A stretch of DNA of 63,554 nucleotides, counting the filler, from Diploschistes diacapsis (Eukaryota): NCBI GenBank assembly GCA_023645945.1. It is 26 parts of 26 records of this genome, joined end to end, with 100 filler letters (N's around TTAATTAATTAA, not from the genome) between each part and the next. Parts side by side here need not be neighbours in the genome. Positions count along the whole stretch, not along the records: positions 3,408 to 21,548 come from JALAIB010000422.1; 25 more parts are not named here. One strand, written 5' to 3'. The notes beneath the pieces were generated by a model. That model saw nothing but the letters and a program-made list of their open reading frames with translations. It made no database searches and was not told the origin of the DNA. Each line of letters opens with the position of its first letter. The first letter of the stretch is position 1. Shown here in pieces: positions 5,215 through 26,993 of this stretch. Both the position numbers and the translations under genes were made by a program.

Positions 5215-6244
5215 ATGATGACGCTTGCGATCTGGGACGCATTGCCGGCATGGGCCAAATTCACCATAGTAAGATGAGCCGTCTGGCAGAAAAGTCGATG
5301 CCACTGACAAGAAACAGATCCTCTTCTTTCTCTTCGTGGGGGCTAGCTCGATAGGTAGCCTGATTTTGCGACTGACGGTTCTAGCTTCTTGTTTCAGGCG
5401 CCGCAGCTGCGAAACGTTACTATGACAACGCTCAACTCCGACGGTACGAACAACTCGAGCAGGAGAGCCTCGAGCTGAATGGTTACGAGCTGCGTTCCCT
5501 GCGCCGCAATACCGAGCAACCCGATGATCTTTTCGGTACTAGGCTCATGGAACTTCGCCTTTCAATCGAAGGACTTTCGACGTTCGATAGAGACACGGGA
5601 CATGTATCCGACGGCACTAGCTCCAAGAAAAAAGGCAAGGAAGTTGTTCGTACTGCTGGTCGAAAACCCGTACCTCGCCGTACCCGTGAGAGATCATCGC
5701 TCGGCTTGATCGATGGAAAGCGACCAATAGGAGACAATAGTTATGTCAAGTACATCCCCGGGAAGAAATCACTTCTGCAAATCCAGAGTTCTCAGGAGTC
5801 GATTCCGGACTCCGAATGTGAATCATCTAGAAAGCTGTAGGTATTATGGCTAATTGCATCTCAGTTGTCAACTTCTCCCGGCCGATCCAACGCGCCCCGA
5901 CCTCCGGCACTGAACCTCGTGAAAGTGCCAACAATGGGGACCCCGGTCCGAGCACCTCGGCTTACAGGGAATCCCTGCCCAACCGCGATCTTGACGGCAC
6001 CACCTCATCGCTCAGCGCCGCTCGGTCTCAATCTTCGGTTTTCCGCCCCAACTCCGCCAATGCTGGCCGCTACCCCGCCAACGAACGCTTCAGCGAACCT
6101 GATCAATCACTCGGCGAAATCGACATTTCCGACTATGAGGAGGAGCCTCCCGCTCGTACCCCGCGTTCTCCAAGAACCGGTCTAGGAATCCAGCGTCGAT
6201 CTGAAGTGAAGCGCAGAGACAAGCTCCCAGTCTACGACGTCTAG
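5215..6244 (+). CDS. Conserved fungal single-pass membrane protein, 4 exons (5215-5268, 5318-5354, 5398-5817, 5865-6244), 296 aa
   Basis: Three GT-AG introns with CTGAC/CTAAT branch sites splice into one open frame: MMTLAIWDALPAWAKFTI|ILFFLFVGASSIG|AAAAKRYYDNAQLRRYE...DDLFGTRLME, then a disordered tail. It resembles a Pezizomycotina family of unknown function (recognised from memory). Confidence 0.75.
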
Positions 6245-6924
6245 GTAAAGATAGTTCTCGCAAATATCACACGGATGTGGGGGCTTCTACGGCTTCACAA
6301 TGGACGCGAGGCTACGATTCTGATGTGGGAATGATTATCGGAATGCAGTGACATGAGAGAGACACGAGGTACGACTCCGTAAGGACAATGGGATTAGCAT
6401 GTGGCAATAAGCATGTGGCGATACGTCGAGTCGAGGGTAGATAGTGTAACAAGGGCTCTGGGTCCGGGTTTTTGCCATGCTGCAGCAGACCATGTCAATA
6501 AACTCCAGAAGCCTCACCGCATACAGCGAATGCTTCCCTCAGAAAGATAATCGATGAGAAGCAGCTGATGCTTTCCCTAATACAGATAGTCAATGAGAAA
6601 AGGGCCAATGCTTCCACGGTGTGTGTTTAGTTATGCTGTGCTCCATGTTCTGTAGCCAGTCGTTCGCAGCACGAACCCAAAAAGCAGATTATGGGGGAAA
6701 ACTCTCGGGCAAGTACATGTTTCAGTAGACGGTCTTTCCATCAAAGCTAGCGAGCCTGAACTCCCTTCCAGAACCAGGTATCCATGCATAGGCCGCCTTT
6801 CCCTCGAACGGCCTCCCAAGTAGAGAGCCCCCACACCAACGCCTCGCAGTTCTCTCAGTATAGACGGAAAAAAAGGGGGCACAAGCACAGGCGAACGAAG
6901 CCAAACCACAACTCCTGCTTCCCT

Positions 6925-8103
6925 TCATTCTTTCTCCAAATCCTTCGGACTGGGATCACCAATTCCATCCTCGTTAATCGCAAACAAACAGTCACTCTCG
7001 GGCAAGCAGGGCGAATCGTAAATCTTGCACACCCTTGTCTCCCCCCTCCCCTTCTTCAGACTCAACCGCGTCGTGCTCGCATGCGCGATGATGTTCCCGC
7101 CGATCGGCTTCTTCGGATCCGGATTGAACATGGCCGAGGGTCCACCATCAACCTGAGCCACGACCTGATTCGTGATCACGACGGCGACGCCAAACTCGTC
7201 CGCGAGGCGCTGCAGCGTGCGCAGGAATTTGGCGAGGTGCGTCTGGCGGCTGGACAGCTCGCCGCGGCCCGAGAAGTCCGTGCGGTACAGGGAGGTGGCG
7301 GAGTCGACGATCAGCAGCGAGAAGCGCGTCTCGCACATCATGGCGCTGGCCTGGTTGAGCAGCTGCAGCTGGTGGTCCGAGTTGTAGGCGCGCGCGTACG
7401 CCACGTTGTCCAGCACCTCCTCGCCGTTCAGGCCGTAGCGGTTGGCGACGGCGAGCAACCGCACGGGACGGAAGGTGCCCTCCGTGTCGATGTACAGGCA
7501 TTTGCCCTCGCCGCCGCCCATGTCGAAGGGCAGCTGGCAGGTAACGGCCAGGGTGTGGCAGATTTGCGATTTCCCGGTCCGGAACTCGCCGAAGATCTCC
7601 GTTATGCTGCCCGTTTCGATGCCGCCGGCGAGGAGCGTGTCGAGCTGCTTGCTGCCAGTGGTGATGGATATGAGTTCGGAGCGGCGCTGGTGCATCTCCG
7701 TGGCGGTGGTGAAGCCCATTGGGACATGCTTGTTTGCTGTGGGAGAAGGCTTAGCGGACGCGGGGAGAAGCATGGCAAGGACGTTGGCGAATAGTCAGAA
7801 CGCAGTAGGAGTAGTGTTACCTTCAAAGAGGAACTTGGTAGCTTTTGCCTCCGATATACCCTTGACCTGCTCCAGCTGGCGTTTCGGCGTGTAGGCGATG
7901 GACTCGATGGTATAGAAGCCACCTTCTACCATGCAGGCTATGTCGCGCTTTGTAATGCCACCGATGCCCTTTAAGCTGTCAGCCGGGTGCCTCAGCTACA
8001 GGATATAGCATCCCACCTCGAGCTTGAATAGCTGGGTTGGTGCTCCCGGTTGTCCTCCCTCATCTTCGCAGCCTGCCTGCGACTCGGCCTCATCTGCGCT
8101 CAT
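6925..8103 (-). CDS. RAD51: DNA repair recombinase Rad51, 3 exons (8103-8017, 7968-7821, 7736-6925), 348 aa
   Basis: Walker A GEFRTGKS, Walker [18 protein letters not shown] and [13 protein letters not shown] are present. The N-terminal HhH region ([19 protein letters not shown]) is recovered by splicing two GT-AG introns. Confidence 0.98.
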
Positions 8104-8607
8104 ATTGATGTGGTACCTAAGAAGGTTGGTTCAAACCTTGCTTGTTGTACCAGTAGGGAAAAGAAAACTTTGAAGCCGTAGGAAACGTGACTATCTCAGG
8201 TTAGGCTCCGCAACAAACGTCGTAGATTTAGATTTGGAGCGTAGATTTCAATTAGGTAGGTTTTGCTGCTGATAATTATGCTCGCTAGTTGCGCGCCGGC
8301 TGATGACGGCTTGAGATTAAGCCCTTTTGGATTAGCCTTTAATGCTAAGCCCTTTTGGGCTAAAGGCTGACAACATATTACGGGTTCGTATCAAACTCTA
8401 TACGCGGCCATAAACAGCCGGTTTAAATAATTACGAAACAAAAAACTTTTTAATGTAAAGAAAATCTTGTATCGCTTGTATATTAAATGCACCAAATATA
8501 AAAGATGTTATACATAAAATAAATCTGAGTTCTTTCGTCAATCGAATGCGACTCGATTTTAATTAAAATCATGATTATCGCGTAGCTCGTTTAAAGCATT
8601 TTAAATA

Positions 8608-8666
8608 GGAGATATTTAATAGGGTGTATAATAAGGCCCTTTGAAAACTCCGTAGGGGGTCGAAAA
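8608..8666 (+). repeat. 59-bp segment with an inverted copy at 15476-15534
   Basis: GGAGATATTTAATAGGGTGTATAATAAGGCCCTTTGAAAACTCCGTAGGGGGTCGAAAA against the reverse complement of 15476-15534 gives 49/59 identity, ungapped. Confidence 0.75.
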
Positions 8667-9265
8667 GCGGTTAAGGAATAGTAGGAATGCTGGGGATGCT
8701 GGAGATGCTGGGGTGGCAAAATGTGTTTGTAGCGTGTAAAATAAGCTAAGTTAGCGTAAAATGAAACAACATGGTGTAAATTTCGTAAGCAAAAGTTAAA
8801 TTGCTCCTTTTATATATAACCTTTCAGCCCCAGACTCCATAACAGCTGATGGATGAGTCAACTCTCGCTAACCCGAATGGGGGCTTAGACTCTTGGCGCC
8901 GGCGAAGCCTGGCGCATCAGCTATAGGGTCTGGGTAACCTAGACTCATACATACGTTGCCCAAAAGTATTGAACGGTCTATCCCATTTGACGCAAATTTG
9001 TACAAACATGGGTCATGATCCATCATGAGCCGGGATATCCTCTGCTCCAGACAGATTTACCGACGGAGAAACTCACTAAAACTTGCTGGAGCTCAATATG
9101 ACACCGGTTTGTGACCCGTCATAATAACTGATAGTGATTTACTTCTCTCATTTCTTAAAACCTAGTTGTACCGTACCTGCCCCAGCATTCATACGCAACT
9201 CATCTTTGCAGAACCCACCACTCTAAAAATTGTATGTCTTCCTTTCTTATCCATACAGTACTAAC

Positions 9266-11760
9266 ATGACTAGCCTCATCGTTCCATTAACGCCGCCATC
9301 CGCCAGCAGAGCCACATCAGTTATGGCTACAGAATGGATAGCCAGCGAGTCAGTGGAGAACAAAGTCATAAAGCAAGCTAATCCGTACTTGTTTACTGGT
9401 TCTCTGGCCAAGAAACAAAGAGTACAACTCTACCCAGCACCGCTCGTTGATGAAACCTTGGCCCAATACGAAAGCCTCAATCCAACTCCACTGTATGCTA
9501 AGTGTCCATTCGAAGAAAACAGCGATACAGCCAGACTGGTGATGTTCTTGTTACGAGAGACCCAAGAAGTGCTTCAAGAGTACAAGCAGTATAAGGAGAT
9601 GACAACCAAGCAAGGGTTGGCGCTAGGCAAAATGCGTGCGATAATTTGTTGAGTACCAGAAAAACAACCGGAAGATTTACAAGGCAAATTTAGTCAGGGA
9701 CATGCTGAGATCTATCAAACCTCGCAAGGAGTAAACCAATGTCAATGCGCCCGACACGAATGACCTTGCCCGCTTTATGGACTAAGGAGCGCTTGGATGA
9801 CCTAGGGTGTCATTCCAATTTCAAAGGCATTCTTCAATCGTATGTTCAAGTATGTTTTACTTGTGATACTTTACCATACCCGACTAATATCTATAGCTTA
9901 ACAACGACCGCAATCAAGCTACACACGAGACACACTATCAGTTTGCAAAACTTTTGCTGGATAGTTAATGAGCTGTGGAAAGCAGCCCTTAGTTGGTTCT
10001 TTGGTGGTAAAACACTCGATGATATCGTGGCAGATTAAGAGTAGTGGGTCTGACTAGAGTCCATATGGCCGCAAACTTGATAAACGGTGGATAACACCTC
10101 ACCTACTGATTGGGATCTCAGAGTCTGGGGTAAGAAGGTTTGCTCGAAACCTACATGGCGATTAAAAATACCAAAAAATACCACCCGAATGACCTCAAGG
10201 TGTGCGCACAACTGGATCCAGACTAGCAACAAGCGATTGAAGCGGAAAAAGCGAGATATACTATAGATTAAGCTTCGTTCCTAGAAAAAAAGGCGGTGGG
10301 CCTGCAGCAGAGAGTTTAATCAACATGATTTTGAGCAAAGGAAATGTACCAAAAGAGCTTAAGTAGAAAACAATAAGAATATAAACTCTTATTAAGCATA
10401 AAACTAAAAGTAACTTAAGAAAAGTCTTGAAAGTCTACTTCATTTACTAACTCCTCCATCTCACGTACACATTTCTAATTCGCCGTGTCCGCTACCAACT
10501 TTTCGTTTTGACCTACAACACCGCGACGAAGCAGATCATAACGAAACCAATTAGACCGCTAACATGCCTCCCAAGCCCAAGAAGAACAAAGCAGCAGGCC
10601 TTACGGAAATTAGGGAGGGTAACAAGAACACAAAAACTGAGGAGAAGGCGAGGAAGGGGACAAAACCCTCGAAAATCCTGAAGAAAATGGTCAGAAGACG
10701 AGGATACCAAAGAGAAAAAAGAAAGATGCGATGACCGCCGAGGAACCTGTTAACCAGATTGCCAATTCGCGTTCTAGGGTAGCAAAAAAGGTATACAACA
10801 GACGTAAAAAGTTAGCGTGTACCTTAAAGGTTGACCAAGATGCTGGCCCTCGAACTCCCCTTAAAGAAATCTTTGACCTAGAGAGACTTTGACTCCGAGC
10901 ACCAACCTACAATTGGCGTAGACCTATCGAGGCAAGCAAGTTTCGCAATCAACCAGAAACATAGCGAGCTGAACGACAAATCGGATACTTACCCGCCTCA
11001 TCAAGCTTCTATTTTAGTGATCTACTATCGGGTCCCTCTAAGCTATGCAAAAGAAGCCGTCCAGATCTTAAGCCAAATCTTCCGCACCATCCAACATAAG
11101 CAAATCGAGTTCATGACGGTATTTGAGCATCAGAGAAGCGTACCACAACTAACCATGAAAGACAGTCTCCTCCTCATCCGATACCTTAATAACATCGACA
11201 AGCTTAAAGAGAAATGGCAGCCCCAGTCTATCAGAAATAGCAGAAGGCAGCACTTAAGAAGAATAATGAACCATCCTTATCAGAGGCCTTGACGGCGACT
11301 GCGTTCAAAAGCTTCTGAAAGGGGCCAATGAATTCGTGAAGAAGGCAGACCCAAGAACGGCATATGGAACCACTATAGTGCAATGGCAGGAAGGTTATCC
11401 ACCCCTGATGAAGCATTTGAAGGTATCAGCCACAAACCGGAAGGCCATTCGACGACATATGGAGCTTCAACGACTTCCATTGACCATCAGTGGCGGCATC
11501 GAAGCTGCAAACTTTGTGGCTTATTACGACATCAGCCTCTCGGAGTTCTGGAATAACGAGCTAGAATTTTTCAAAAACTCGCAGACACAGACATTATTAC
11601 ACGATGTTCTACATCTACTAAACACGCAATCGACGATCGCAAGGAGCTGATGGCAAAGTATTGACAATATGGGCTGCTTCTCGAACTGGAGAAGTAGGGG
11701 ACTGAGGGGACTCGGCCTTTTGAAAGAAGGGGCATTGTCAGGGATGGCGATTGGCTCCGT
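9266..11760 (+). pseudogene. Two decayed ORFs of unknown type (MTSLIVPLTPP..., and MPPKPKKNK... from ~10564) ending at a PPT-like tract plus TG; possible non-autonomous LTR-element relic
   Basis: Long coding-like stretches are broken by stops and frameshifts. GAAAGAAGGGGCAT-TGTCAGGG near 11723-11745 resembles a polypurine tract followed by an LTR start. No RT or integrase motif was seen. Confidence 0.4.
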
Positions 11761-12228
11761 TATGTTAAGGATAATGGAGACAATAACGACCTCCTAACAG
11801 CAGTGTTTATTACCTAGCTAGCTTAGATCAAGCTGCCATGGTGCGGATGGATTGCTCTGCACAGAAACTTTGCGCAATAAACCTACCTTTTCTGGTACAG
11901 GATCCAAGTCTCAAGTTTTTTAGAGTTTTCTTCAATCCAATACTAGCGAGCTAGTGCGATAAATTGAAGACAGCGACTGTTAGTGTACGATTCGGATTGG
12001 CGGCTTCATCATATCCTACATGGCAAGCCAGAAACCCAAAAGCACAATTGCTGATATGAGAAATTCTTGTCACCAGTAGTTACTCTCGTGGCAGGCGCAT
12101 TGGAAGCAAACAAAACCCGTATCCAGAGCATCTAATATTACCTAGCCATACCTTGGGTCTTCTCGCCTTCTTTTAGGAGGTTGGCGATAGTAGTTGGGTG
12201 ACTTATATGGCCAGAAGCACGGGTCTTC

Positions 12229-13376
12229 ATGAAGGCCGTCAACAACATCTCGCAGCAGCTCGAGGACATGACCCTCACAGTCCAGGGACGTACTCCCGAG
12301 ATCTTCGCTCATCGTCAGATTGTCACAGCATTCATATGTACTTTTCAAGGCAGCTCGTTCGAGGACTTCAGGGTCGCCATATTCAAGCGTAGTAATCACA
12401 CTCACTCCCATCAGTAAGCTCATCGTTACAAAAGCTTAACAATACTAGTTGTATACTAAGTTGCTCGGAGGGGACTGTGGGCTGGCATTTCTCGCACGCT
12501 CAAACCGGAAGAAACTGATCCGCTGGGCGTAGCATGGCATGAGGTGGAAGAAGCCACGAGCTTCGCCTGCGATGAATTGACTCTCCTCCACGCCGGCAAA
12601 CCTCACCGTCTCCTCGCCCCCGACCTCTCCAAAAGATGGACCGTCTTTCCATTCGCCTTCGTCCTCAAGCCCAACACTAAACCCCTCCACCTTCACTGGA
12701 AGCACACCGAACACCGCTTTGTCCAGCCTGAAGAGGTCGAAACCTACAACACCGTCCCCGACCTGGACATCACCCTCTGGCGCACCCTCACGGGCCCCGA
12801 CACCGCCGAGGGCCTCAAGGAGCTCCGTGAGGACCACTCCTCTGGCGCCCGTAGCCTCGCTACGAAGGCCGTGCGCATTCTACTCATTTCCGTGACCGGC
12901 GCTGACCTCGACTGGTCCTCCAACGTCGTCTCCTACTGGCGCGCCTTCCGGCTTGTCGCTTGGCACCTGGCCGTCAACGGGCGACCCTCCATGGGCGCCG
13001 CCATCGAACGCGCTGTCCTCCGAGCCGTGGTCCTCGCCTCTTCTGGGATCTCTAAAGTCTCCACCGTGGACGCAGCAAAGGAGGTCCTCATCGACGCCTG
13101 CATGCAGGCTCTGAAAGAGCGCGCCCTTGGCCGCGAGCGCGTCGCGCAGCAGTTCGTCTCCTACATCTCTCCCCTGGCCGCTTCGCAGCGAGCAGTCACC
13201 TTCCTCACCCTCTCCATCTCCTGCGCGAAGCTCTGCGTCCTCGAGTACGCGCGCCAGGCAAAGCACCAGGCCATCCACATCATCGTGCTCGAGTCGCGGC
13301 CCGGCTTCGAGGGCGTCCGCATGGCCCTCGACCTAAACCAGGCCATCCTCAGCCTCCTGGCCGCGGAACAACAGAC

Positions 13377-13408
<32 letters not shown>

Positions 13409-13956
13409 AACCGTCTCCGACAGCCAACGGTAGCATTCCCAGTAGTTTCCCGGCCCCAGCTTCAGCCTCAACCTCCGCCCCCCCAGCAAACCGCATTCGC
13501 ATCACGCTCGCCACAGACGCCAGCGTCGGCTGTCTCGCGCACGACGTCGACTTCGTGATACTGGGCTCCGACCGCATCAACCACTCGGGCGACGCCTCCA
13601 ACAAGGTCGGCTCGCTGTCCGCCGTGCTCACCACCCGCGCCATCAGCCGCAAGCCCGTGCAGGTGATTGTGGCGGCGGAAACGGAGAAGATCAGCCGCCG
13701 TGGCAGCCCGCACGACGCACTGGTCGAGAAGAACAATAGCGACGAGGTGGCGGCGGCGTGGCCGATCCGCGAGGAGGAGAAGCGCATGCTGGTCGGGTCT
13801 GGGGTGGTGGAGATTGTGAATATTTTTTTTGAATGGGTGGGCAGTCGCTACGTGGATGCGTACGTGACGGAGAGGGGCGTGATCAGGAGGGAGGATATCG
13901 TGAGGCAGTCGGAGGTGGCGGCGAGGGAGTGGGCGGAGGTTTTTGAGAATTTGTAG
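12229..13956 (+). CDS. Nudix-like plus eIF2B-alpha/MtnA-family (NagB/RpiA/CoA-transferase fold) fusion protein; intron 12414-12470
   Basis: N-terminus IVTAFI...VAIFKRS...GLWAGIS...WHEVEEATS...WKHTE is Nudix-like. C-terminus has DHSSGARSLA, GRPSMGAAI, VLESRPGFEG, VILGSDRI...NKVGS and NIFFEWV...YVTERG (IF-2B family). A polyQ/CAG run lies at 13381-13407. Confidence 0.85.
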
Positions 13957-14299
13957 GAAAGGTAGAGATGGAAGAGATGGGGTAAGGGTGTGTGCGTGTG
14001 TCACAGGCTTGCGCATTCTCTTGCTTTATCGATGCCTACAACCAGGCGTTTACTCGGTTTAAAAGCCACGGCATTTTAGCAACGACGCTTGGCTATTACG
14101 TTTGATGCAGTGCTTGCTAAAGATAAAATCTTTTACTTTCAGTTGTCCCTCAATGACTGCTAAGGCTGCTGAGCTTGATGAGACTGTTGGGGTATTCCAT
14201 GGTCAAACTCCTCCGTGATAGATCCCCTTTGGACGTTTCAGATGCTTGGTTCTCAAATAGCATCAGGCACTCTCAACCAAACACACCGCCCAAATCTCA

Positions 14300-15431
14300 T
14301 GCAGCAGAGCCACTCCGTTGTCTCCCGCGAAGGCTTGGAGGACAACGGCGGCTTCCGGTGGAACAAGTGCTGTTGGGTTCGCGTCCACTTCGGACACGAG
14401 GGCTTGACCTGCTGAAGCCTCTGGTAGCCCACTCTGCTGCTTCCCCCCAGCTTAACACGCACTGACGATTCTTCAGCCCAGCCACCGTGGATCTCCACTC
14501 TTTCCCGAGAGTATGCACACGTCCTCGGGTCGGATACGGTTCTCTAGAGCTGCGTCCGGTCTCTAGTGTCGGGGTTTCAGTCAGCTCAATGACCCATCGG
14601 CAGGCTCTAGACAACGCGTAATGGCCGTCATGTCGCCGTGTCTTCTGCGGCCACGGGAGTTCGTCGAAAGCTGCTCTCATGGCGCGATAGCAGCACTTGC
14701 CCTTGATGCTACGCATGCTTCCTTCACCGAGCTCGATAAGAAGTGGTTTCTTGTCGAGCTCGGGTTTCAAGTCTTGCGGAATGTCACACCCCTGAAAGCT
14801 CCTCGCTTCGCGTAAACCGCGATGCAGTCCAAGATCCGGCAACAGATGTAGCTGTATCATTGAGATGTCTAATATGTTCAAGTTTTCGAATAAGCGCAGC
14901 TGTCTGAAGAGTAGCCGCTCGCCACGCAGAAGGTTGAATATTCGGTCGAATCGCTCGCTAAGACCAGCCGTGGTTCGGACTGCAAGGTGGAAGCGTTGTG
15001 ATATAGCGATTCAACGATGATCTGGATGCTGTGGATAGACCTCGCATCATGGCGAAGCCAAACGATCATCTCTATATTCGTTAGTCTCTGATCGGCCCAT
15101 TCTGTTGACTGGATCATTAGCGATATAGCTCTCAAATCCAAGGGCTTCACTCCTTTCAGTATCAGACATCAGGGTAAAACCCAACGCTTTTGGGCATGGG
15201 ACGTCAACCTGGAAGGTGCAGTTGTCGTAGAACAATTGTATACACTCGGAAGCAATCTGACGACAAGTTGACGGTAGGGCGAATACGAATTCCGAGCAGG
15301 ATTACATATACTCTAGTGACGTTGCCTGGAAAGGTAGCGCAAAAGGACCATATCAGGTCTCGAATCTCACACGATAAAGTGAATATATGGACGCGTCTAG
15401 GAGAAAGCCCGCCTCTGATTCTTAGAATCAT
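14300..15431 (-). pseudogene. Frameshifted F-box-like hypothetical gene
   Basis: HIFTLSCEIRDLIWSF resembles the fungal LPxEIRxxIY motif, followed by FYDNCTF. The coding-like text continues through four successive partial ORFs in different frames. Confidence 0.4.
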
Positions 15432-15924
15432 TGGACCAATCTTTCCGAAGCATGTGAAGCATCTTTTCGAGCATTTTTTCGGACCCCTACGGAGCTTTCT
15501 TAGGGCCTAATTAGACCCCTTATAAAATATCTCCGATATAACAGTTGCTCGAAAGCCCTCGTTTGAAATATTATTTAAATACGGTATTGGGTAATATTGT
15601 GTTACAACTATTAGTCTAATACGGCTTGGAGCTGCCACATGTCATGACCAAAATAGAATCAGATATAAGTATAGAAATTAGCCTTCACACAAAGTATTGA
15701 TCTTAAATAATACTTCAAGTATTATAATATCTCATATTGCGACACATCATCGAAATTTTAGTAATGATTATTTCGTATACACCACTACCCCGTATTAACT
15801 TAAGTCGAGATGTGTTGTTTGTGGTGTGGAAGGTGCCGTTCGTAGCGCCGAGAGTTGTCGTAGCAACTAGGTGGGGTCCAGGATGCCAAAGCCTGGAGTG
15901 AAGAATATTGGAATATTCGGAAGG

Positions 15925-16135
15925 TGGCAGCAGTGGATTTCGAACCCACGACCTTTCGTTTCGCCATAAGTATTATTTAATTTACAAAACTTTAAATTAA
16001 TTATTTTTAAAGATATTTGAATATTTATTATTATATTAATTTTGTTATTGTATCACGTGCTCGGGTACTAGGGTTTGTTGCTGTGAAAGCGCTGCTACGC
16101 GCTGCGCTGCAATGGCGAAACAAGAGCATGCTGCC
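15925..16135 (-). ncRNA. tRNA-like element: acceptor stem and T-arm, no D-arm, 10-bp helix enclosing a 144-nt insert
   Basis: Minus strand reads GGCAGCA...GTTTCGCCAT-(144 nt)-ATGGCGAAAC-GAAAGGTC-GTGGG-TTCGAAA-TCCAC-TGCTGCC-A. The 7-bp acceptor pairing is perfect, and the T-loop/B-box is GGTTCGAAATCC. Confidence 0.55.
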
Positions 16136-16553
16136 TACAGTAGGTACTAGGCTCCTATGACTGTAAGACTCAAAAACCATTCTTCTCCTACCAGAGGAGA
16201 TGCTATATGTGGGCCGCTCTACCTGCTGCTGCCTGAGAATATCACGAAGGAATGGATAGTTTGCTGTGGCATTCCTACATATTAACGGGCATTGCCTTCC
16301 ATTCCTTCTTTACACTACAATGATCATTCTAAGTCCATAATATATAACAGGTAACGTGACAGGTTATCTTCGAAAAGCCTCCCCTCAGACTTACGCTCGA
16401 TAAGCCGGTAGGAACCCTATTTGGTTGTAGCTTCCCTTAGTCACTAACCGGTTTATCTTATCTTATTTCTTCTTCGTATTCTATTCGCAATACCTGCTCT
16501 GAAGCTGATCTTTGCCCTTTACAGTTTCTGGGGTGATTGCAATCGGGTGGATA

Positions 16554-17714
16554 ATGGCCGTACAAGCCCCAAAACCGGGTGCTTTAGACTTCGAGCCTCA
16601 AACACAGTCGCCATTGTTCTCGAAGATACCAGGAGAGATACGTAATTTAATATATCTGTTCGCTCTTTGCGAATACGAGGATCCAAATGATGCATATTCC
16701 GCAGACACCTGCTACAAAAGACCAGGCTACTTTGCGCGACGGCGGATCGACACGTCCCTACTCAGGACCTGTCAGAAGGTGCATGAAGAAGCATGGTTCG
16801 TCCCGTGGACTTCTCTCGAGCACATCCTCTTCTTCACTAGCGCCAGTCGCAGGCCAGAGCGCTACACAACTCAGGAGCAGCTTGCGAAAACCCTTGCCAA
16901 GATCCACAGCATGCACGGCGAAGAAGCAACTGTAATAACCCACGTCCGTTTGTTCCCACAGCTATACCTTCTCGAGAACGGTAAAAACCTCGCCGAGCTA
17001 CTGGCGATCCCCCATTTCAACCCGACCTACTTCACAATTACCCTCCGCCACACAGACTGGTGGCTCTGGGAGAACGACGAACCGCTCCGCATCGCCAGCG
17101 GCTTCGTGAACTCATGCAAGTTCCCTAACAGCGTGACAGAAATCCGCCTGGAGCTCGAAAGCATCGAGCGCCGCCGGCCGCAGATCCAAGACATCGCAGC
17201 GCAGATGGAAAGTAAGTGGGTTTTCCGGCGACGTGACGACAAGGCCCTCGTGGCCGTGCAGGGCAGCGAAAACGAAGTCATGAGATGGGAAGGCAGCTCG
17301 ACGTGGAACAACCAGCGCTGGCTGCGCGACGAGACCAAGCCCGACACGCTGTTGTACTACATGCAGACAGTGCGCTTCCGCGTCGATCCCGACAGCGATC
17401 TCGAGGCTAGGCCGCACACCTCGCCGGAGCTCCGCGTCATGGGGTATAAGAAGCAGCATCACGCCCACGCTTCGACCAGGGCAGACGAGCTAGCGGACCG
17501 CGGCATCGGGCCCGGCTTCTCGGCGGATGAGGTCTGGGAGCTTCTGGACAAGTATCGGCGGCGCTGCCAGTGCGCTCTTTGGAAACGGCTGTGTTGTGGG
17601 ACGGGGCTCGGGGCCAGATGGGCGCGTGTTGGCTCTCAATCTCCGTATTGTCAGAATTGTCTGGTACGTTGCTTGGAAGTCCTCTTGATGATCTTGTTTG
17701 TCGGGACTTGCTAA
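16554..17714 (+). CDS. Conserved fungal hypothetical protein with an N-terminal F-box-like motif
   Basis: The 386-aa ORF from ATG 16554 contains QSPLFSKIPGEIRNLIYLFAL, YKRPGY, LLRTCQ, ITLRHTDWWLWE and LELES. The true C-terminus is uncertain. Confidence 0.75.
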   Translation: MAVQAPKPGALDFEPQTQSPLFSKIPGEIRNLIYLFALCEYEDPNDAYSADTCYKRPGYFARRRIDTSLLRTCQKVHEEAWFVPWTSLEHILFFTSASRRPERYTTQEQLAKTLAKIHSMHGEEATVITHVRLFPQLYLLENGKNLAELLAIPHFNPTYFTITLRHTDWWLWENDEPLRIASGFVNSCKFPNSVTEIRLELESIERRRPQIQDIAAQMESKWVFRRRDDKALVAVQGSENEVMRWEGSSTWNNQRWLRDETKPDTLLYYMQTVRFRVDPDSDLEARPHTSPELRVMGYKKQHHAHASTRADELADRGIGPGFSADEVWELLDKYRRRCQCALWKRLCCGTGLGARWARVGSQSPYCQNCLVRCLEVLLMILFVGTC

Positions 17715-17871
17715 CTTCTCGCAATAGATTGGCGGATGCGGTGGTGTTCGGGAACTTGGAAAGCAGATATCGTCATTGGGGGGATCGAAAGGATGAGACC
17801 GCACACTGGCACCTGGAACAAGCTTGCTCGGTGAACCGTTTGCCTTAGGAGCACTACCTGCGCCGCTCCTT

Positions 17872-17930
17872 CTCCACATATAATATGTCTGCCAAGCCGT
17901 TTAGCTCATATCTAGTTCCCATAGTAATTT
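17872..17930 (+). repeat. 59-bp dispersed repeat, second copy at 47442-47500 on another contig
   Basis: The copies are 53/59 identical (CTCCACATA...GCCAAG..GTTTAGCTCATATC.AGTTCCCATAGTAATTT), and 5 of the 6 differences are transitions. Confidence 0.85.
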
Positions 17931-18253
17931 GTATGCATTGCATTGCCTCAAAACTCAGACCCTAAAAACTTGCGCCAGGCTTCGCGGGCGCCAGAGCCTA
18001 AGCCCTTTCGGATTGGCATTCCCGCTAAAACCTATTCTACTGTGCTATAAACTTTACACTAGTACCTTTTCGGATTCCTATTCACCCATACGCAGATTAA
18101 ATGTCAGCCCTACAGAGTTTGTATGAAGGTGCGAGTCAAACTGGAATTCAGGGCGATATGTGAAACCATAACGGCCTGCTGTGAAGCTTGCTAAGCTTCC
18201 GCTCTTGATCTGGTTCTCGAATTGAGCTACTGGATGGAATTGAAACTTCCAGC

Positions 18254-21200
18254 ATGGAGTCCAGGGCCCCTTCATCAACGTTCTGTTTACACGCCGAAAC
18301 CCGTGTGAACCTAGATCCATGTGCATCATCAACCATAGTTCAATTGCAACTCCCTTCGACAAGCGCTTTCGCTCGCTCCTCGCACATCCAAAGGAAAGTC
18401 CTCGATAGTCTGCCTATCTGTAGGAATGAAGATGAATTCAAAACAAGATATCTTGCCAGTTCTAGCTCTGTTTATTTTCGAGGCGCAAATCGATACCCAC
18501 GGAGCATCTTATGGCGCTGTGTCGACGGCGATCGGTCGCTAGAGCTTCGCTCTCTAGATTTGAACAAAGGTGAAGAGGAGGGCAGAGATGCCAAGATCAT
18601 TATTAGGATAGGCTTTCCTTCGACCATTCGCAATCACGGTGTCGCTATTGCAGAATCCGCGGAGGAGGACCTGATCAGCGTCTTTGTCTTGACGAGCAAT
18701 AACGACCTCTACACGTTATCATTGCGGCCAGCCTTTTTCTGTAAACTTATAGGTTCGCAAGATGATACTGACCGCTGGTGCAAGGTTTTTAGACCCTCTT
18801 CGCTTGCAATTAGCAATTTCTACCGATTGACCGCCTGTGGAGCCTACTCACTCCTTGTTGCTCTTGTAGATGGCCGTCTGGTCCATCTCACCCGGAAGTC
18901 AGGAGATGATGGATCTTTTTGGAATGAGGCAGCATATAGTGATGGACAATGGGTATCTTCACTTAAAGGGTTACTACGCTGGCAAGGGAGAAATACTGTT
19001 CGGTACAAAGGGGACTTCTTGCAGCACAATACTGTCATCAATGCTACGCTGTCACCGGACGGAAGTCATTTAGTAGCTGTTGGGCTGAATCACTCTCTGA
19101 GGTTTTGGAACCTAGAGAGTGGACAGGTAACGGTCTCGAAAGATCTCCTGGATGTCCAGAGAGAACCCCAAGATGTGGCCAGGTTCATGCTTAATCCTGG
19201 GGTCTCCAAGGTTTTGACAGTCTTCGAGACGCAATCAGCCTATGAGGGAGACTTATACTATGCAATTACCTTCTCCCCACACACTTCTGGTTTATTCAAA
19301 GTGTGGGGAGTTCGAGACGCAGATCACGTTGAATCTGGCGTTCGGGATTTATTCTCCGATGAGACCCTCCGAGTACCCGATCCTGATGACGGAGCTTTAT
19401 GGACAATGTCAGACTTCCAAGTCAAGGGCGATCCTACGAATGCTGGGCTTGACCTGTGGATTCTAATGCGTCTGAACCGTCGCTACAAGCTCTATCATCG
19501 ACAGTTTTCAGAACTGCCGGCGCTCGGGAGTGAATGGCAGTATGGCTGGTCCGCTATCGCTATCGATCCCGCTAGCAATGAGCCATCGAACGAAGTCCCT
19601 CTAAAAATATCAGATCTTGACTCTTATGGCGTGTCGGACATATGGCTCGAATTTCTTACCATTCCAGGCCGGATTCCAGAAGCTGTTCTCGAGACGGCAC
19701 TGGAAACTTACATCGATGCTCGAGAAGTGATTAGATCTAGAAATGAGCAATTGCCCCTAAGAGAGCGGATTGCTATGACGGTAGGCTCCAGAGCCCATCT
19801 ACAAGAACAAGGTGATCTTGCTGTCGGTGCTTTTCAGGATAGTCTACAAAAAGAATGGCAAAGCTTCTGGAACACGATACTGGAAATCGAGCATCTCCGA
19901 TGGGATCCTCTCTCACTGGCTCTTGATAAGCATTGTGATATGCCTCATATCATCTTTGCAGACGGATGCTCAGTTGTTCGCGAATTCGGTGAGCTTGAGA
20001 CTCTAACGTACAACAGACCTAAAGACTTGATTAGAAGTCAAAGTCGATCCTTGATGCAGTCAATTGAGATGGACGGAAGCTCCGTTGCATCGCGGTCCCT
20101 GGAGGAGCTTTCCACGATCATCAACGCGGCTGCCAAGTTCCGGTCCGAGTTCTCAGCCTCGCTATTGCTTTCCTGTAAGCATGCTTTGCAAACCGAACTA
20201 TGGCTGGACTCATCCTTTTCCGTGCCCGAGAGAATGCAAAGCTTCTACGACCGGTGTAATTTCGAAGTCGAGGTTGGAGATCGAGCGTATAACCATCTGA
20301 CTTCACACCTCAAAAGCGTCCGGGGGTTTAACGCGCTTACCACTAACGTTTTTCTATCAATTATTGAGTTGTTCCCCAAGGAAATGCCACCGGCTTCGCG
20401 CCTGTCCTCTACTTCCTTTGGTTTGAAGGCTCTCGTAAAAGGAACACAGGACATGGTCGGCTTGCAGTCACGAGTTCTCACGGATTTATTATACCTGCTC
20501 GTTTTCGCCGACGTGGAGGTAGATAGGGAGGAATTCAGTATGGAGAACCTCGACTCTTCGCTAGTTTTCTCCGAGCTCCTGGAACAAATACGCCACAGCC
20601 AACTAGCTTCTTGGTTGGGCACACATACCCGATCGAGTACCCGGAGAAGCGCGGAGGAAAACATGCCCACCGGCCCTGGAAGGAGCACAACGCCTATTTA
20701 TCAGGCCACTATATTAGAGGATGTCTTCGCGGGGGACATAAAGCCACAGTCATACATGACGCAGAGTCAAAGCTTTGCCTTCACGCAAACTATACAGGAC
20801 CTTCTAACTTATATGTCGGGCGCCAATCAAGTCACGCTGGACAAGGTACTCGTGAGCATCCAATGCAATTTGCTTAAACACGGAAACATCGACCTAGCCT
20901 CGTCGTTTGCGCAGTTCCAGCCATCCACGGCCTGGGCGACATACATACGTGGGCGTCTGAGTCTGGAGAAACACGAGTACACAGAGGCAGCACGCTACTT
21001 TAAGAAAGCTGCCTTCAAACTTTGTAAGCCCAACCGCTCCACCTCTTCTAAAACAGGTTTCTCTGACAGCTCGACACTAGCTCGTCCCACCCCACCATCC
21101 TCCGAATACTCCTTCGCCTCGTCCTCCCTCCTTGACCCCCTAACCGCCTCTTTCCTCGCGAGCGGCCTCCCAAACTACTACACGCACATCATCAATCTCC

Positions 21201-21548
21201 TCTCCCCACACCGCGCGCACTCCCACATCTGCGCCTTCGCCCAGCTCGCCCTCCAACACTGCCACCCCTCCCAAGCCCACAGCAACCATCAAAACCAAAC
21301 CCAACCTCACTCCCACTCCCAACGCACCGATCTCCTCTCCCGCCTCTTCCGCTCCTCCCTCGCCCTGCACGACCACCCAACCGCCTTCTCAGCCCTAACC
21401 CGCCACACAGACCCGGCCCTCCGAAAATCCTCCCTCTCCGCCCTCGTGACCAGCATGATCTCCAACAACGCTATCGAAGACCTCCTCTCCCTCCCCCTCC
21501 CCGGCAAACTGCAGAAGGACCTCGACGACATCCTCTCGTCGCACGCCC
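18254..21548 (+). CDS. NUP120: Nucleoporin Nup120/Nup160, 3'-truncated by the contig end; probable intron 21024-21080
   Basis: ORF over 1090 aa with an N-terminal beta-propeller region (YPRSILWR, LNHSLRFWNL, FKVWGV) and a helical region (TAWATYIRGRL...YFKKAAF, YYTHII, LLSRLF), typical of fungal Nup120. Confidence 0.88.
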
Positions 21549-21648
21549 NNNNNNNNNNNNNNNNNNNNNNNNNNNNNNNNNNNNNNNNNNNNTTAATTAA
21601 TTAANNNNNNNNNNNNNNNNNNNNNNNNNNNNNNNNNNNNNNNNNNNN

Positions 21649-22082
21649 AGATTTTAAATAATTTGGCCATACAACGGCTAGTTTTCGCTTAATCTAAATT
21701 TTCTAAGATGACTGAAAAATGATGAAAAGGGTCACACAACGACCGTATAACGTCGGAAAAATGTTTTTTTCATTTTTATTAAACTTTACGCATAAAACCA
21801 CTCGTAATCATATATTTAAATAAAATATATTTTGCTTGGTGAAAGCAGATTTTAAAAGATTCGAAAATCCGTTTTTTCGAGACCTCATTCTTAATTCGCT
21901 AAAAAAAGTTAACTGACGACGTAATCACTGTGCACTTATTACGTATGATAGATAATTGATTAAAAAGTAATATTTTGAAACAAAAATATCGATTATTTTT
22001 GAAGAATTAATTGAAGATTTAAACTATTTCTTGGCAAAAGTTGCCGGAATATGGGGGTGGCCGGAATCCCCGTCAAACACGT
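21649..22082. mobile_element. Family A terminus, second copy of 1-444
   Basis: Same subterminal sequence and TIR, ending AAACACGT plus TA. Confidence 0.8.
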
Positions 22083-22783
22083 TATAAAGATTAATCCTCT
22101 GTAATAGAAATAAAAATGATCGAATGAATTTATCGGTTCAATTAAACTTCGATGATTATTAAGTAATCGAGTAGGTTCAGCGGCGGTACAGTTAAAGATC
22201 GATAATTAACGAAGGAATCTAATAGATCCAACCGCGAGGATAACGGTTTAACTAGATTTTAAAGATTGATAAAAGATCGATGAGATTTAACAACGATTTA
22301 GCTACATTTCGATTATTATCGAGAAAGAAAAGGATTCGGAGGTTTTTCGGTGATTTATATAGATATTATCTAGATCTAATTATTTCTTATTTAGGTCTAC
22401 CTTAAGCCAACGTATTAAGATCTCGCGTTTTTTTTAAATAATATAATTTCTATCTTTAAATTAACCTATCCTAGGATTTTATAAATTAGATTTTAAACTT
22501 TCGAATCTCTACGATTTAAACCTTCTTTAAGCTACTGTAATCGATACCCGTGCTCGTAACCGTTCCAATTATCAGAAAGACTTATCTCTAATATTCTAAT
22601 ACACGAAATAATTCTTAAGTAGGCGAGCCCGGGCTTATAACCTATGAAACAACGTAATGGATTTATTAAAGTCTAAAGATCTTNNNNNNNNNNNNNNNNN
22701 NNNNNNNNNNNNNNNNNNNNNNNNNNNTTAATTAATTAANNNNNNNNNNNNNNNNNNNNNNNNNNNNNNNNNNNNNNNNNNNN

Positions 22784-22913
22784 GTCTTCCAAACCTTCTA
22801 CTCATCACATGACCCGCGTCATCCTAATTAGACTATATACAAGGAATGGTTGGGAAGTGCCCGACTAGCTATTGCGTGCCAAGTACTACCGCCTAGTACC
22901 TTGGATCGTAACA
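22784..22913 (-). mobile_element. LTR terminus (TGTTACGATCC-type) inserted in a Copia gag relic
   Basis: Ends GGATCGTAACA. Related LTR starts lie at 57613, 62053 and 63181. Confidence 0.65.
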
Positions 22914-23546
22914 AAAGTACGACTATTTAAGAAATATGAATATATTTATTAAAACTGTTAAAGAAGCTATCGTATAAACAAAAAAAATACGCCCTAAAGG
23001 TTCCCTTTTAATAACTACTTGCAATACTACCGTCTAACTACGGAATCATTATCGACGCTATTAATACCCAAACCGATAGTATTTCATCCGTTAATATCGA
23101 CTTCGATAAGTAATTTAACAGGCTTACCGATAAATAAGATAAGCTGATAGAAGAAATTATAGCATATTTCTTGCGTTATAAAAGATTATAGTATTTTAGG
23201 GGCTTCCGTTCCTAAAAACGATCCGACGAAAAACGACGCCGTCATTCTAGCCTAAAAAAAGGATATCTATTTTATAATGCCGATGATTATCGCGCAATAC
23301 GATACAAGCTCGCTAAAGAGTTTAAAAAATTAATCATCGTAGCAAAAGACAAGAAGCGGGAAAAAAAAAGAATCCCGAGATATCCGCGACAAGAAAGGCA
23401 AGAACAAGCGCGCCTATAATATAGAAAGTTCAGACGATAAAAGATTAAAAAGTTCGGAATCTGAATCTGAACCTGAACTTCAATCATATAATAATGAAGT
23501 TGGTAATATAGTTAAAAACGTTATTATTAAAAGTAAGATTATTTTA
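22914..23546 (+). pseudogene. RIP-damaged retrotransposon gag region with a degenerate CCHC knuckle; second copy 56878-57610
   Basis: The 57300 copy reads GCLFYNGDDYRAIRYKLAKEF, consistent with a CxxC...H...C knuckle after C>T/G>A changes. Confidence 0.6.
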
Positions 23547-23818
23547 CATCACGAAAAGTTTTTCAAGCAAAAAAAAATTTCTGGCGAAACTGACGAAACC
23601 TGGCGAAACTGGCGAAACTGGCGAAACCGGCGAAGGTGGCGAGGCCAATCTTTTTTATTACGTAATCAGAAAATAAAAAAGCATTTTTTTAATATTTTAA
23701 AAGAAAAAAATTTCGAAAAAAATATTAAAAAATTCGCTAATTTAGTGCCGGATAACTAGCGTCGAAAACTCGCTAAAGATCTCACGCCGCGAATATCAAC
23801 GCTTACGTAATATAAAAT
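23547..23818. mobile_element. hAT-like family C terminus (TIR CATCACGAAAAGTTTTT plus tandem GGCGAAACT subterminal repeats)
   Basis: The same TIR and 9-bp repeats occur at ~29211, 31040-31246 (-), 55830-56015 (-) and 58573. The superfamily is inferred from architecture only. Confidence 0.65.
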
Positions 23819-23918
23819 NNNNNNNNNNNNNNNNNNNNNNNNNNNNNNNNNNNNNNNNNNNNTTAATTAATTAANNNNNNNNNNNNNNNNNNNNNNNNNN
23901 NNNNNNNNNNNNNNNNNN

Positions 23919-24686
23919 GGATATTAAGATTTAGTTTAACTCTAAATCTAAATTTTCGAAATTACGAGGATACTTCGATACAGATTATAAGGGAAACAAG
24001 TTAGATCGAAAGTTTACGTATGGATATATTTTTTAATTATGCGGTAGATTAATATTTTAAATAAATAAGAAGCAAAGTTCAGTTTCAACGTCAATTATAG
24101 AAATTAAATATATTGATTTATTTTACGTCGTTAAATAAGCTTTATAATATGTATAGTTTTTAAAAGATATTAGTTATTCTAACCTTATAAGATTATTTCT
24201 ATATACTGTTAATTTATTTAATGATAATATTGGTTTTTTGGACTTAATAAAGTACGTAAGGATTAACGATCGTTCAAAATATATCGATATTATTTATCAT
24301 TACGTACGAGATCTAGTTAAGTAGGGACGTATTAAGATGTCTTATGTCTTTATCGATAAAATGGTTGTTGATAGATTTACGAAGTTATTGAATTACTCGA
24401 AGCATGACGCCTTTATTAAGGGACTCGGTTTAGTCTAAAAGATATCTAGTTGGACTATATAGTTATGCCGGACGATTCCGTTTATGGGGGAATGTTGAGC
24501 AGATAGGCAGAAGGTATGGCTGGGAGTTTAACTAAGTTTCAGAGGGAGGTTCAGTTCAGCTGAACCTTTTGGAATCCTAATTAGACCGGTTTAGGAATAA
24601 TGTAGGTAATAGGGCTTAGCGTATCCCATAAGGATAAAAGTCTGCAAAGTAGGATAACCTCCTAGATAGACCTCTAGACTTCAATA
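23919..24686 (+). mobile_element. Ty1/Copia 3' end: RNase H relic, PPT and 3' LTR (from 24493)
   Basis: Reads GYFDTDYKG...KKQSSVSTS...RSKYIDIIYHYVRDLV...MVVDRFTKLL, then the purine tract GGGGGAA and TGTTGAG. The LTR end (TCAATA at 24686) is tentative. Confidence 0.85.
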
Positions 24687-25271
24687 CATCCATTACGTTG
24701 CCAAACAAAAAGCTTAATTCTCAGATACTGGATATAAGAGCTTTCGTTAATCTCTCGAAAGTTAAACGACCCAAAAGCTTCGTTAAAGCGTTTATTAAAT
24801 TATCGCTTAAAAAAATTTATTTCAGAATAAACGTTCCGTCTTTATAAAACTTTCGAATATAATAATAATAAATCGAGATATGTTTATTACGATTTATCGT
24901 ACGTCTATTTTTTATAAGATTTATAAAGTTTTTATTATTAATATAAATAATAANNNNNNNNNNNNNNNNNNNNNNNNNNNNNNNNNNNNNNNNNNNNTTA
25001 ATTAATTAANNNNNNNNNNNNNNNNNNNNNNNNNNNNNNNNNNNNNNNNNNNNTCCATCCTCAGATCTTATAGACGATGAACAATAATAAAAGATAAAAA
25101 AAATATTAAACAAAAGATTAAAAGCTAAGGTCCTATAATATAAAGTATAATAAAAAGGCTAACCGCCAAAATATAATAATTAGATATTAATAAACTGGCT
25201 TAAGAATACCACGAGCATGCTCGAAAACTATAAAACAATTCATTTATAATCTAAAAGAAAACTAAAGCGAT

Positions 25272-25441
25272 TGTAACAGCGGGGGTAGTGCCTAATAGGT
25301 AGCGCTATCCCACTGAGTCAAAATACTGAACACAATGCTTTCAGGAACCCCGAAGCACTGTTTCCCTATTACACTATATGTAGGTGCGTGGCTGTGGCAG
25401 CAGGGGGATCTGAACCCCAGGGCGCACCTTTGGGCGTTACA
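25272..25441 (+). mobile_element. 170-bp solo LTR (family 1) with 5-bp TSD GCGAT
   Basis: TGTAAC...GTTACA termini with GCGAT on both sides. Confidence 0.92.
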
Positions 25442-25963
25442 GCGATATTAAATAATATTATATTATTATTAATAAAGACCTAATGCGAGCTTGATTATTA
25501 ACAGGTATATACATTCTAAATTAATAAAAAGAAATATTAATATCTTAAATCCTATTTCTAGTATATATAATAAATCTTATTCTTTTATCAGGCCTATCTT
25601 CCTGTCCTTCTCTAGATACGCGAGAAACATAACCCTACGGATAAACGAGCTTATCAATAAAAGGCGAGAACGCACGTATCGTAAAAACAATAAGCGTTTT
25701 AAAGCGTCGTGAAGCGACAAAACGTTTAAAAGAACGTTCCCGGTATTACATTAATATAATAATAAAGTATAGATTATCGATTATGTTTTTTTGAATTTCG
25801 AGCATGGTTTATTTTTATTTTTATATTTCCGCCAGTTTTAACGTAATTATATCGATTAATTCGAATATCGTATACTTTATACGAGAAAAAGTGTTATTAA
25901 TAATATTTTTATTAATAATAATAAAGGAATTCGTTATTTTTACGAAAATAACGGGTTTCTTAT

Positions 25964-26087
25964 TGTTATGATCTCTATCTATACAAGGTATACACGAGTA
26001 GGATCAAGGTGGGTTTGGTCTCTGTTAGAAGAGGAGTGTGGCAGGAGAAGAAGATAGAGCAGTTATAGGTCTTGGACTGTCTCTAGA
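25964..26087 (-). mobile_element. LTR family 2 outer terminus (TGTTATGATCTCTATCTATACAAGG...)
   Basis: Near-identical termini start at 52055, 53966, 56108 and 58675, each with a different flank. Confidence 0.85.
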
Positions 26088-26790: not shown

Positions 26791-26830
26791 ATTCGACCTC
26801 GTACGTAACGTAATTAATAAATATGGTACC

Positions 26831-26993
26831 TGTAAGGCCTGCGGGGTTACACATCTGCCACCTACTGCCACAGCCACGCACCTACATATTGTGTAATAGG
26901 GAAACAGTGCTTCGGGGTTCCTGAAAGCATTGTGGCTAGTTTTTTGGCTCAGTGAGATAGCGTTATTTATTAGGTACTACCCCCGCTGTTACT
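26831..26993 (-). mobile_element. Family 1 solo LTR variant, reverse orientation
   Basis: Reverse complement of the 170-bp LTR over most of its length, with a divergent far end. Flanks are GTACC and GTATC. Confidence 0.8.

Follow-up and report, generated by a model that had tools for sequence, protein, structure and literature searches.

The genome of Diploschistes diacapsis (GenBank assembly GCA_023645945.1) contains, on the minus strand at positions 15925-16135 of the stretch of joined sequence analysed here (63,554 nt in all, called the window below), a 211-nt element in which a tRNA-like acceptor stem and T arm enclose a long insert. We read this element as a dead remnant, left either by a class-II tRNA-Leu gene or by one copy of a dispersed repeat derived from tRNA-Leu, and put the probability of this reading at roughly 0.8. 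On this reading it is a known kind of genomic debris met in a new instance, that is, an ordinary pseudogene. A preliminary description of the same DNA had compared the arrangement with the topology of transfer-messenger RNA (tmRNA) and had proposed an undescribed tRNA-derived non-coding RNA, an atypical intron-containing tRNA, or a structured pseudogene, short interspersed nuclear element (SINE) or TFIIIC site; the first two of these proposals fail, and the tRNA-Leu kinship of the 3' part favours the pseudogene or SINE-type relic.

This kinship was established with tRNA genes fetched from a collection of metagenome contigs. The exact 24-mer of T arm and acceptor strand had 0 matches in the collection, and a relaxed pattern of the same parts, GTGGGTTCGAANNCCACTGCTGCCA, in which the two bases after TTCGAA were left free, fetched 25 metagenome loci, all of which have TC at the free bases. 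At 15 of the 25, ARAGORN places a tRNA-Leu with anticodon TAG or AAG on the matched part, and it names no other isotype there; the remaining ten comprise four loci cut by a contig end and six truncated or internally deleted tRNA-Leu relics, which indicates that broken tRNA-Leu copies keeping the T arm and the acceptor strand are common in other eukaryotic contigs. Three of these relics (L005, L011 and L021) keep the 3' part only and three (L008, L009 and L018) have internal deletions, the 3' ends being intact. In alignment with the fetched genes, the last 34 nt of the element (CGAAAGGTC followed by the T arm, the acceptor strand and A) are identical to tRNA-Leu at 31 positions, and its first nine bases, GGCAGCATG, agree with tRNA-Leu positions 1-9 at eight, the sole difference (GGCAGCA for GGTAGCA at positions 1-7) turning a U:G pair into C:G. 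Three parts are without counterpart in the alignment, namely the D arm with its A box, the anticodon arm and the variable arm's 5' strand, and the A-box region reads TGGCCGAGCGG in real genes against TGCTCTTGTTT in the element. Of the variable arm, the loop and 3' strand (CGAAAGGTC) are kept, and the 5' strand possibly persists as the outer, imperfect part of a 15-nt inverted repeat. Position 61 is T in the element, giving G53:T61, and C in all 25 fetched sequences. A tRNA-Leu profile for nhmmer, built from three of the 25 loci (two distinct sequences), has its only convincing match in the window at 15951-15925 (E 2.5e-4), so that the likeness of the T arm and acceptor strand is not due to chance. 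Judged by sequence, then, the 3' 34 nt are of tRNA-Leu type, as the preliminary description had supposed, and the fetched loci, the isotype calls of ARAGORN and the alignment all bear this out.

Read along the minus strand, the element begins with the acceptor-stem 5' strand GGCAGCA (16129-16135, tRNA positions 1-7), a perfect complement of 15926-15932, and continues with TG (16127-16128, positions 8-9), the last 5' bases of tRNA derivation in the alignment to the fetched genes. These two bases open the 7-nt linker TGCTCTT (16122-16128) that stands in the place of the D arm. The 5' arm of the inverted repeat (16112-16126, perfect core 16112-16121) occupies the expected site of the D arm and A box, and is followed by a GC-normal part of the insert (16046-16111, 55% GC), which carries an open stretch of 21 codons (16110-16045), and by an AT-rich part (15968-16045, 8% GC). 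The 3' arm of the inverted repeat (15953-15967, perfect core 15958-15967) overlaps with its last bases the variable-arm remnant ACGAAAGGTC (loop and 3' strand, 15950-15959), at which the likeness to real tRNA-Leu starts in the alignment. The T arm (15933-15949), which is B-box-like and has G:T at 53:61, consists of GTGGG (15949-15945), TTCGAAA (15944-15938) and TCCAC (15937-15933), and the acceptor-stem 3' strand TGCTGCC (15932-15926) with discriminator A (15925) completes the element at 15925-15932. Beyond it lies, on the same strand, a downstream flank (15735-15924) with internal indels and no T-run, which contig comparison shows to be common to other contigs carrying the tRNA 3' part. A perfect 10-bp helix of GTTTCGCCAT (16121-16112) with ATGGCGAAAC (15967-15958) closes 144 nt (16111-15968), and a repeat search gives the inverted repeat a full extent of 15 nt at 87% complementarity (15953-15967 with 16112-16126). 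All of these parts, namely the acceptor pairing, discriminator A, T arm, linker, helix and loop, lie where the preliminary description had placed them, and the 21-codon stretch translates as given there.

The 211-nt strand folds at -53 kcal/mol, compared with -38.8 +/- 4.0 kcal/mol among 200 shuffles, none of which does as well (z -3.5), and this z-score mostly restates the presence of the two helices. With 17 inverted pairs of at least 11 nt in the 2 kb around the element, an inverted repeat of 10-15 nt is in itself unremarkable. The 9-mer GGCAGCATG at the 5' end occurs once in the window; the neighbourhood is rich in GCAGC, a second GGCAGCA lies 98 nt further upstream at 16233-16227, and there are 13 GGCAGCA/TGCTGCC sites in the window.

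None of the models applied accepts the element as a tRNA or a tmRNA. With default settings, ARAGORN finds 0 genes of either kind in the whole 63,554-nt window, and on 15600-16500 it finds 0 both with introns of up to 300 nt and in tmRNA mode. Rfam returns nothing at gathering scores and, at E <=10, no tRNA or tmRNA family, the one match being a meaningless small nucleolar RNA at 14.8 bits against a threshold of 90 bits. Of the 18 genes that ARAGORN had called as tRNA-Leu, 12 went into a covariance model; this scores the element at 10.7 bits (E 1.2), matching 15965-15924 only and ranking it fourth among 12 background-level matches, with three unrelated places in the window scoring higher. At a threshold of 80%, ARAGORN reports a 'tRNA-His' with a 229-nt intron, whose 5' strand is taken from the GGCAGCA at 16233-16227; this candidate was rejected, having weak D and anticodon arms and an equally scored random candidate beside it. 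The tRNA features that are kept are the 7-bp acceptor stem and A73, the fetched tRNA-Leu genes having the same 3' strand, and those that fail are the D arm with the A box, the anticodon stem-loop, the G53:C61 pair, the RNA polymerase III (Pol III) terminator and acceptance by a model. On the side of tmRNA, the failing features are the G3:U70 pair, a tag frame or a match to a pseudoknot model, and a bacterial or organellar genome. The preliminary description was correct that the G3:U70 pair is absent, the pair here being C3:G70, and that the open stretch is not an SsrA tag, since no tag-like frame exists and the tmRNA mode of ARAGORN finds 0. Processing enzymes of tRNA need the tRNA elbow, and an intron site at 37/38 needs an anticodon loop; without D arm and anticodon loop the element offers neither. 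The comparison with tmRNA thus fails in a nuclear fungal context in which no tRNA or tmRNA model accepts the element, an intron-containing tRNA is contradicted by the missing D arm, A box, anticodon loop and terminator together with the null result at introns of up to 300 nt, and the reading as a new tRNA-like or tmRNA-like RNA is not supported.

The signals for transcription point the same way. A run of four or more T begins within 12 nt of the 3' end in 24 of the 25 fetched tRNA-Leu loci; downstream of the element there is no T4 for 272 nt, the first being at 15653, and a TTTT lies inside the insert at 15989-15986. Since the A box is missing and the T-run is internal, a full-length Pol III transcript would be unlikely. 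The absence of an A box and of a nearby terminator had been noted before and holds, the A-box region being replaced. The B box that had been called good is present and falls short in matching the consensus at 10 of 11 positions with the mismatch at position 61. It is the only B-box-like site in the window, where 3.9 would be expected by chance, so that the likeness is unremarkable.

Evidence on conservation and copy number comes from public sequencing data. Sequence words of the locus were found in three DNA runs and no RNA run: a lichen metagenome (X1, with 0.89 of the words), a relative (X2, 0.33) and a rock metagenome (X3, 0.23). Contigs of the three were compared with the window over 15000-17500 at a likeness of at least 80%, which lets in AT-rich low-complexity matches, and contig depth was summed over organisms. 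An X2 contig of 555 nt, whose depth of 86.5 equals the single-copy level, runs across 15911-16387, which shows the arrangement to be real rather than an assembly join, and older than the split from the relative. This span, which includes the element, has 17 substitutions in 477 positions (3.6%) and 70 gap letters, with at least 44 net extra. The corresponding figures are 21 in 673 (3.1%) and 20 gap letters for the non-coding neighbour at 15000-15672, five in 315 (1.6%) and 0 gap letters for 16435-16749, which overlaps the start of the gene at 16554, and 12 in 698 (1.7%) and 0 gap letters for flanking coding sequence at 16803-17500. In its rate of change the stretch with the element behaves as unconstrained spacer does, and its loop varies in length. 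Among the differences listed, the only change in the long helix is A>G at 16122 in X2, which turns G:T into G:C and would fit a C-to-T transition in the lineage of the window as well as selection on pairing.

The tRNA 3' part is not confined to this locus. Contigs of X1 are identical to the window on both sides and break at 15832 and 16045, and across 15840-16091 the summed depth rises from ~81-89 to 312-703 in X1, from ~87 to 688-2756 in X2 and from ~3 to 8-83 in X3. At least five X1 contigs (249 to 10,120 nt) share 15887-15957, 15889-15947/57, 15828-15911 or 15804-15936 with indels, and X2 contigs too share the tRNA 3' part and the downstream flank. In this flank X1 contigs have indels at 15869-15919 (among the matches listed), and in several contigs 15755 abuts 15828, 15889 or 15919. 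The shared contigs and the joints indicate that the tRNA 3' part with 35-190 nt of downstream flank is a dispersed, indel-rich repeat. In all three runs the other copies part from the window at 15954-15957, which is the end of its tRNA homology; the consensus of their loose ends, on the strand of the element, shows a GGCAG block and a short hairpin whose 3' strand AAGGT is kept in the window (agreement 0.46-0.70), and resembles what native tRNA-Leu-type sequences have as their anticodon-stem 3' strand and variable arm.

A second multi-copy piece, separate from the 3' repeat, covers ~15966-16079 of the insert. Its AT-rich part (15968-16045) is multi-copy and length-variable in contigs, all three runs have 16028-16074 in multiple copies, loose ends lying at 16074/16079, and at 16039 at least three, six and five contigs of the three runs, respectively, have G for the A of the window. 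Positions 16092-16175, which include the left inverted-repeat arm, are at single-copy depth in all three. A mitochondrial origin of the 8%-GC stretch is not favoured, as the matching X1 contigs are at about nuclear depth. Inside the 63.5-kb window, blastn with word size 7 gave AT-rich low-complexity matches only when a second copy was sought, and fuzzy searches in which parts of the insert and of the flank served as queries returned the locus itself only.

From these observations the following history may be proposed. At its 5' end the remnant keeps tRNA positions 1-9, and at its 3' end ~34 nt, which run from the variable arm (loop and 3' strand only) through the T arm to the acceptor 3' strand with A73. 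Everything from position 10 to ~44 is lost, including the D arm and its A box, the anticodon arm and the variable arm's 5' strand. The gap is filled by ~170 nt of other DNA, which is bounded by an inverted repeat and comprises a GC-normal stretch and one of 8% GC, the latter belonging at least partly to another repeat family. The 'acceptor helix' is the retained acceptor stem of a tRNA-Leu, and the 10-bp helix is formed by the inverted repeat that bounds the inserted DNA; the outer five imperfect pairs of the 15-nt repeat lie at the native variable-arm stem, and the inner 9-10 bp look like the inserted ends proper. Foreign mobile or repetitive DNA probably inserted in or near the variable loop, together with an internal deletion, before the split from the X2 relative. 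The arm ATGGCGAAAC resembles 9-nt tandem units, CTGGCGAAA, in the AT-rich blocks of the window (17 matches at no more than one mismatch against 4.4 expected), a hint from sequence that a resident transposon family may have supplied the inserted ends. If 16122 is read with the base of X2, the 9-bp repeat would have CG on both sides, a 2-nt repeat that is weak evidence. No RNA function would be expected of the product, with the A box gone, the 53:61 pair broken, a T4 inside the insert and no terminator after it.

Several observations weigh against this interpretation. The other copies are known as depth and contig pieces rather than as sequences. There is no target-site duplication, direct repeats at either candidate boundary being of at most 2 nt, and the left arm with the first ~30 nt of the insert is single-copy; with the left third of the insert single-copy and no target duplication, a clean insertion of a miniature inverted-repeat transposable element (MITE) is doubtful, and the mechanism of insertion itself is conjectural. 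The change at 16122 in X2 keeps the pairing (G:U to G:C), and a perfect 7-bp acceptor, a fold that beats 200 of 200 shuffles and retention in a relative would also be expected of a structure under selection. Finally, the nine bases at the 5' end could owe something to the GCAGC-rich neighbourhood.

Among the alternatives, the one that survives best, and that we regard as possible though doubtful, is that the element was never a true gene and is a copy of a tRNA-Leu-derived SINE-like repeat (a tRNA-like head followed downstream by a common body of at least 120-220 nt), the head of which was later broken by insertion. A tRNA-derived SINE consists of a tRNA-like head with an internal Pol III promoter, followed by an unrelated body. 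The sharing of the tRNA 3' part and 35-130 nt of downstream flank, with indels, by several long X1 contigs and by X2, and the joints from 15755 to 15828, 15889 and 15919, are what such a repeat would produce, and a SINE head would normally have no T-run right behind its tRNA part. Furthermore, no difference occurring in several contigs falls in 15925-15957 among the differences listed, an absence which hints that the other copies share the TTCGAAA/TCCAC T arm. However, the copies diverge upstream of 15954-15957, where their mutual agreement is 0.46-0.70, and a common complete head is not seen; neither a poly-A or simple-repeat tail nor a target-site duplication was found, and the window holds no second copy. 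The element resembles tRNA-derived SINEs in having a tRNA-like 3' part followed by a flank common to dispersed copies with no T-run directly behind, and differs from them in that this copy lacks the A box, tail and target duplications were not found, and the family is seen as depth and contig pieces.

An intact miniature transposon with terminal inverted repeats (10 + 144 + 10 nt) inside an otherwise ordinary tRNA-Leu gene appears improbable. A disruption of this kind had been named in the preliminary description as what might overturn its own proposals, and it comes near to the history proposed above: the perfect 10-bp terminal repeat, the AT-rich interior and the size are MITE-like, the arm ATGGCGAAAC is like the CTGGCGAAA units (17 against 4.4 expected), and the X2 base at 16122 would supply CG flanks on both sides. 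What does not stand is the ordinary tRNA and the intact transposon, given that positions 10-~44 are absent, the flanking direct duplication is of at most 2 nt, the left arm and 16092-16111 are single-copy in three runs with only ~15966-16079, chiefly the AT-rich part, multi-copy, and there is no second copy in the window. As a MITE, the element would have the terminal inverted repeats (a perfect 10-bp core within 15 nt) and lack the target-site duplication. Dada DNA transposons insert inside tRNA-Leu and other small-RNA genes with 6-7-bp target-site duplications and have sub-terminal rather than terminal inverted repeats (PMC3706591), and are reported in fungi (PMC5751038). The locus shares with Dada insertions the presence of mobile DNA within a tRNA-Leu gene, with a tRNA fragment to its left and another to its right (Dada insertions with one-sided or mixed flanks are also known), and it differs in its terminal repeat, in a 144-nt insert too short for a transposase and in the absence of a 6-7-bp duplication, on which ground a Dada-type insertion was ruled out.

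A B-box-only landing site for TFIIIC, of the 'extra TFIIIC' type and serving as a chromatin or insulator element between two DUF7730-like genes, would be compatible with a pseudogene origin, and we consider it very unlikely. The site is the sole B-box-like one in the window (10 of 11 against the consensus), is placed in the 1.25-kb spacer between the two genes and is kept in X2, but its mismatch hits position 61 of the conserved 53:61 pair, and one match in 63 kb is fewer than the 3.9 expected by chance; titles in the literature on extra-TFIIIC sites pointed to nothing specific. A functional tRNA-like non-coding RNA, either an acceptor/T-arm minihelix with a long structured insertion, perhaps CCA-tailed, or a tRNA with a giant intron, is more improbable still. 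The perfect acceptor stem with A73, the good T loop, the long closing helix, a fold z of -3.5 and an arrangement kept in the relative with a pairing-compatible change at 16122 speak for it; against it stand the missing A box, the B box damaged at position 61, the TTTT inside the insert with no terminator after, the lack of D arm and anticodon loop, a loop that differs by at least 44 net letters in X2, substitutions at a non-coding rate, and rejection by all models tried. Pure chance likeness to tRNA ends in GCAGC-rich intergenic DNA, suggested by the second GGCAGCA 98 nt upstream, by the 13 GGCAGCA/TGCTGCC sites and by the local frequency of inverted repeats of such size, is hardly credible in view of a 27-34-nt 3' match to tRNA-Leu (E 2.5e-4, 31 of 34 identical) and the recurrence of the 3' part in many contigs of three runs.

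The preferred reading, a dead tRNA-Leu gene or repeat copy, agrees with what is seen in tRNA pseudogenes and relics, which have recognisable tRNA ends and a ruined core and are rejected by tRNA detectors. Unlike these, the element has both acceptor strands surviving around ~170 nt and able to pair, and its replacement DNA carries an inverted repeat of its own of 10-15 bp. The likeness to tmRNA (SsrA) is one of topology only, an acceptor/T-arm domain closing a large insert with a short open frame, whereas the C3:G70 pair, the absence of a tag-like frame and of any ARAGORN or Rfam tmRNA match, and the eukaryotic nuclear context set the two apart. That context follows from the flanking genes, namely Nup120, a member of the eIF-2B family and a pair of weak DUF7730-like genes. 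The element lies in the 1.25-kb spacer between this divergently placed pair, at 14297-15301 (minus strand) and 16554-17714 (plus strand). A coding origin of the downstream flank was rejected, as the minus-strand open reading frame at 15715-15972 has no Pfam match and its likeness to the DUF7730-like neighbour amounts to a 21-nt motif only. Two further short multi-copy pieces lie in this spacer at 15420-15590 and 15672-15755, with summed contig depths of 2-5 times single-copy in X1 and X2 and more than 15 times in X3. Shared variants occur at 15483, 15509 and 15514, and the spacer in its entirety resembles a mosaic of repeat fragments.

The window as a whole is made up of AT-rich and GC-normal blocks, as in a fungal genome with repeat-induced point mutation (RIP). 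In the AT-rich blocks a 170-nt element occurs at 25272-25441, 55280-55451 and 59875-60044, all on the minus strand, and in part at 26843-26992 on the plus strand. It has TG..CA ends (TGTAAC...GTTACA), its three full copies have 5-bp target duplications (ATCGC, ACGAT and TATAG), and it starts with a block like the variable arm, T arm and acceptor 3' strand of tRNA-Leu, ending in CTGCTGCCA. With no Rfam match, it looks like a solo long terminal repeat or a small integrase-mobilised element that escaped RIP. Kinship of the 15925-16135 element with these 170-nt elements is not shown, the alignment score being 28 against a shuffle maximum of 27. Tandem arrays of the 9-nt unit CTGGCGAAA and its complement, in both orientations, were found at 23581-23642 (plus strand), 31041-31111, 55839-55888, 55950-55968 and 58620-58638; the unit is one base off the inverted-repeat arm of the element, and the arrays may be sub-terminal repeats of a RIP-degraded transposon. 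Across the AT-rich blocks 1037-3407, 21549-32983 and 51122-62525, the motif N44-TTAATTAATTAA-N44 recurs every ~1133 nt, with a spacing that shrinks from 1136 to 1129. There are 50 N runs with 2200 N in total, and this pattern looks like masking, or like linkers inserted by an assembler or operator, rather than biology; the element itself lies in the uninterrupted 3408-21548.

The finding matters little beyond annotation, where a tRNA-Leu pseudogene or relic, and not a gene, is the fitting label for the locus. Judged by titles, the literature on fungal tRNA pseudogenes and SINEs contained nothing specific, and we make no claim that such relics are unreported. The locus is a warning case, in which an acceptor stem and a T arm around inserted DNA imitate a tmRNA-like topology and fold 'significantly' without there being an RNA gene. 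It is unlikely, to the point of being a long shot, that the locus represents an undescribed tRNA-Leu-headed mobile family (SINE-like and Pol III-related) of a lichen- and rock-associated fungal lineage, or an expressed, CCA-tailed minihelix RNA. Nevertheless, tRNA-Leu 3' halves appear to be joined to at least two different short dispersed elements in this genome, and these could define new small mobile families.

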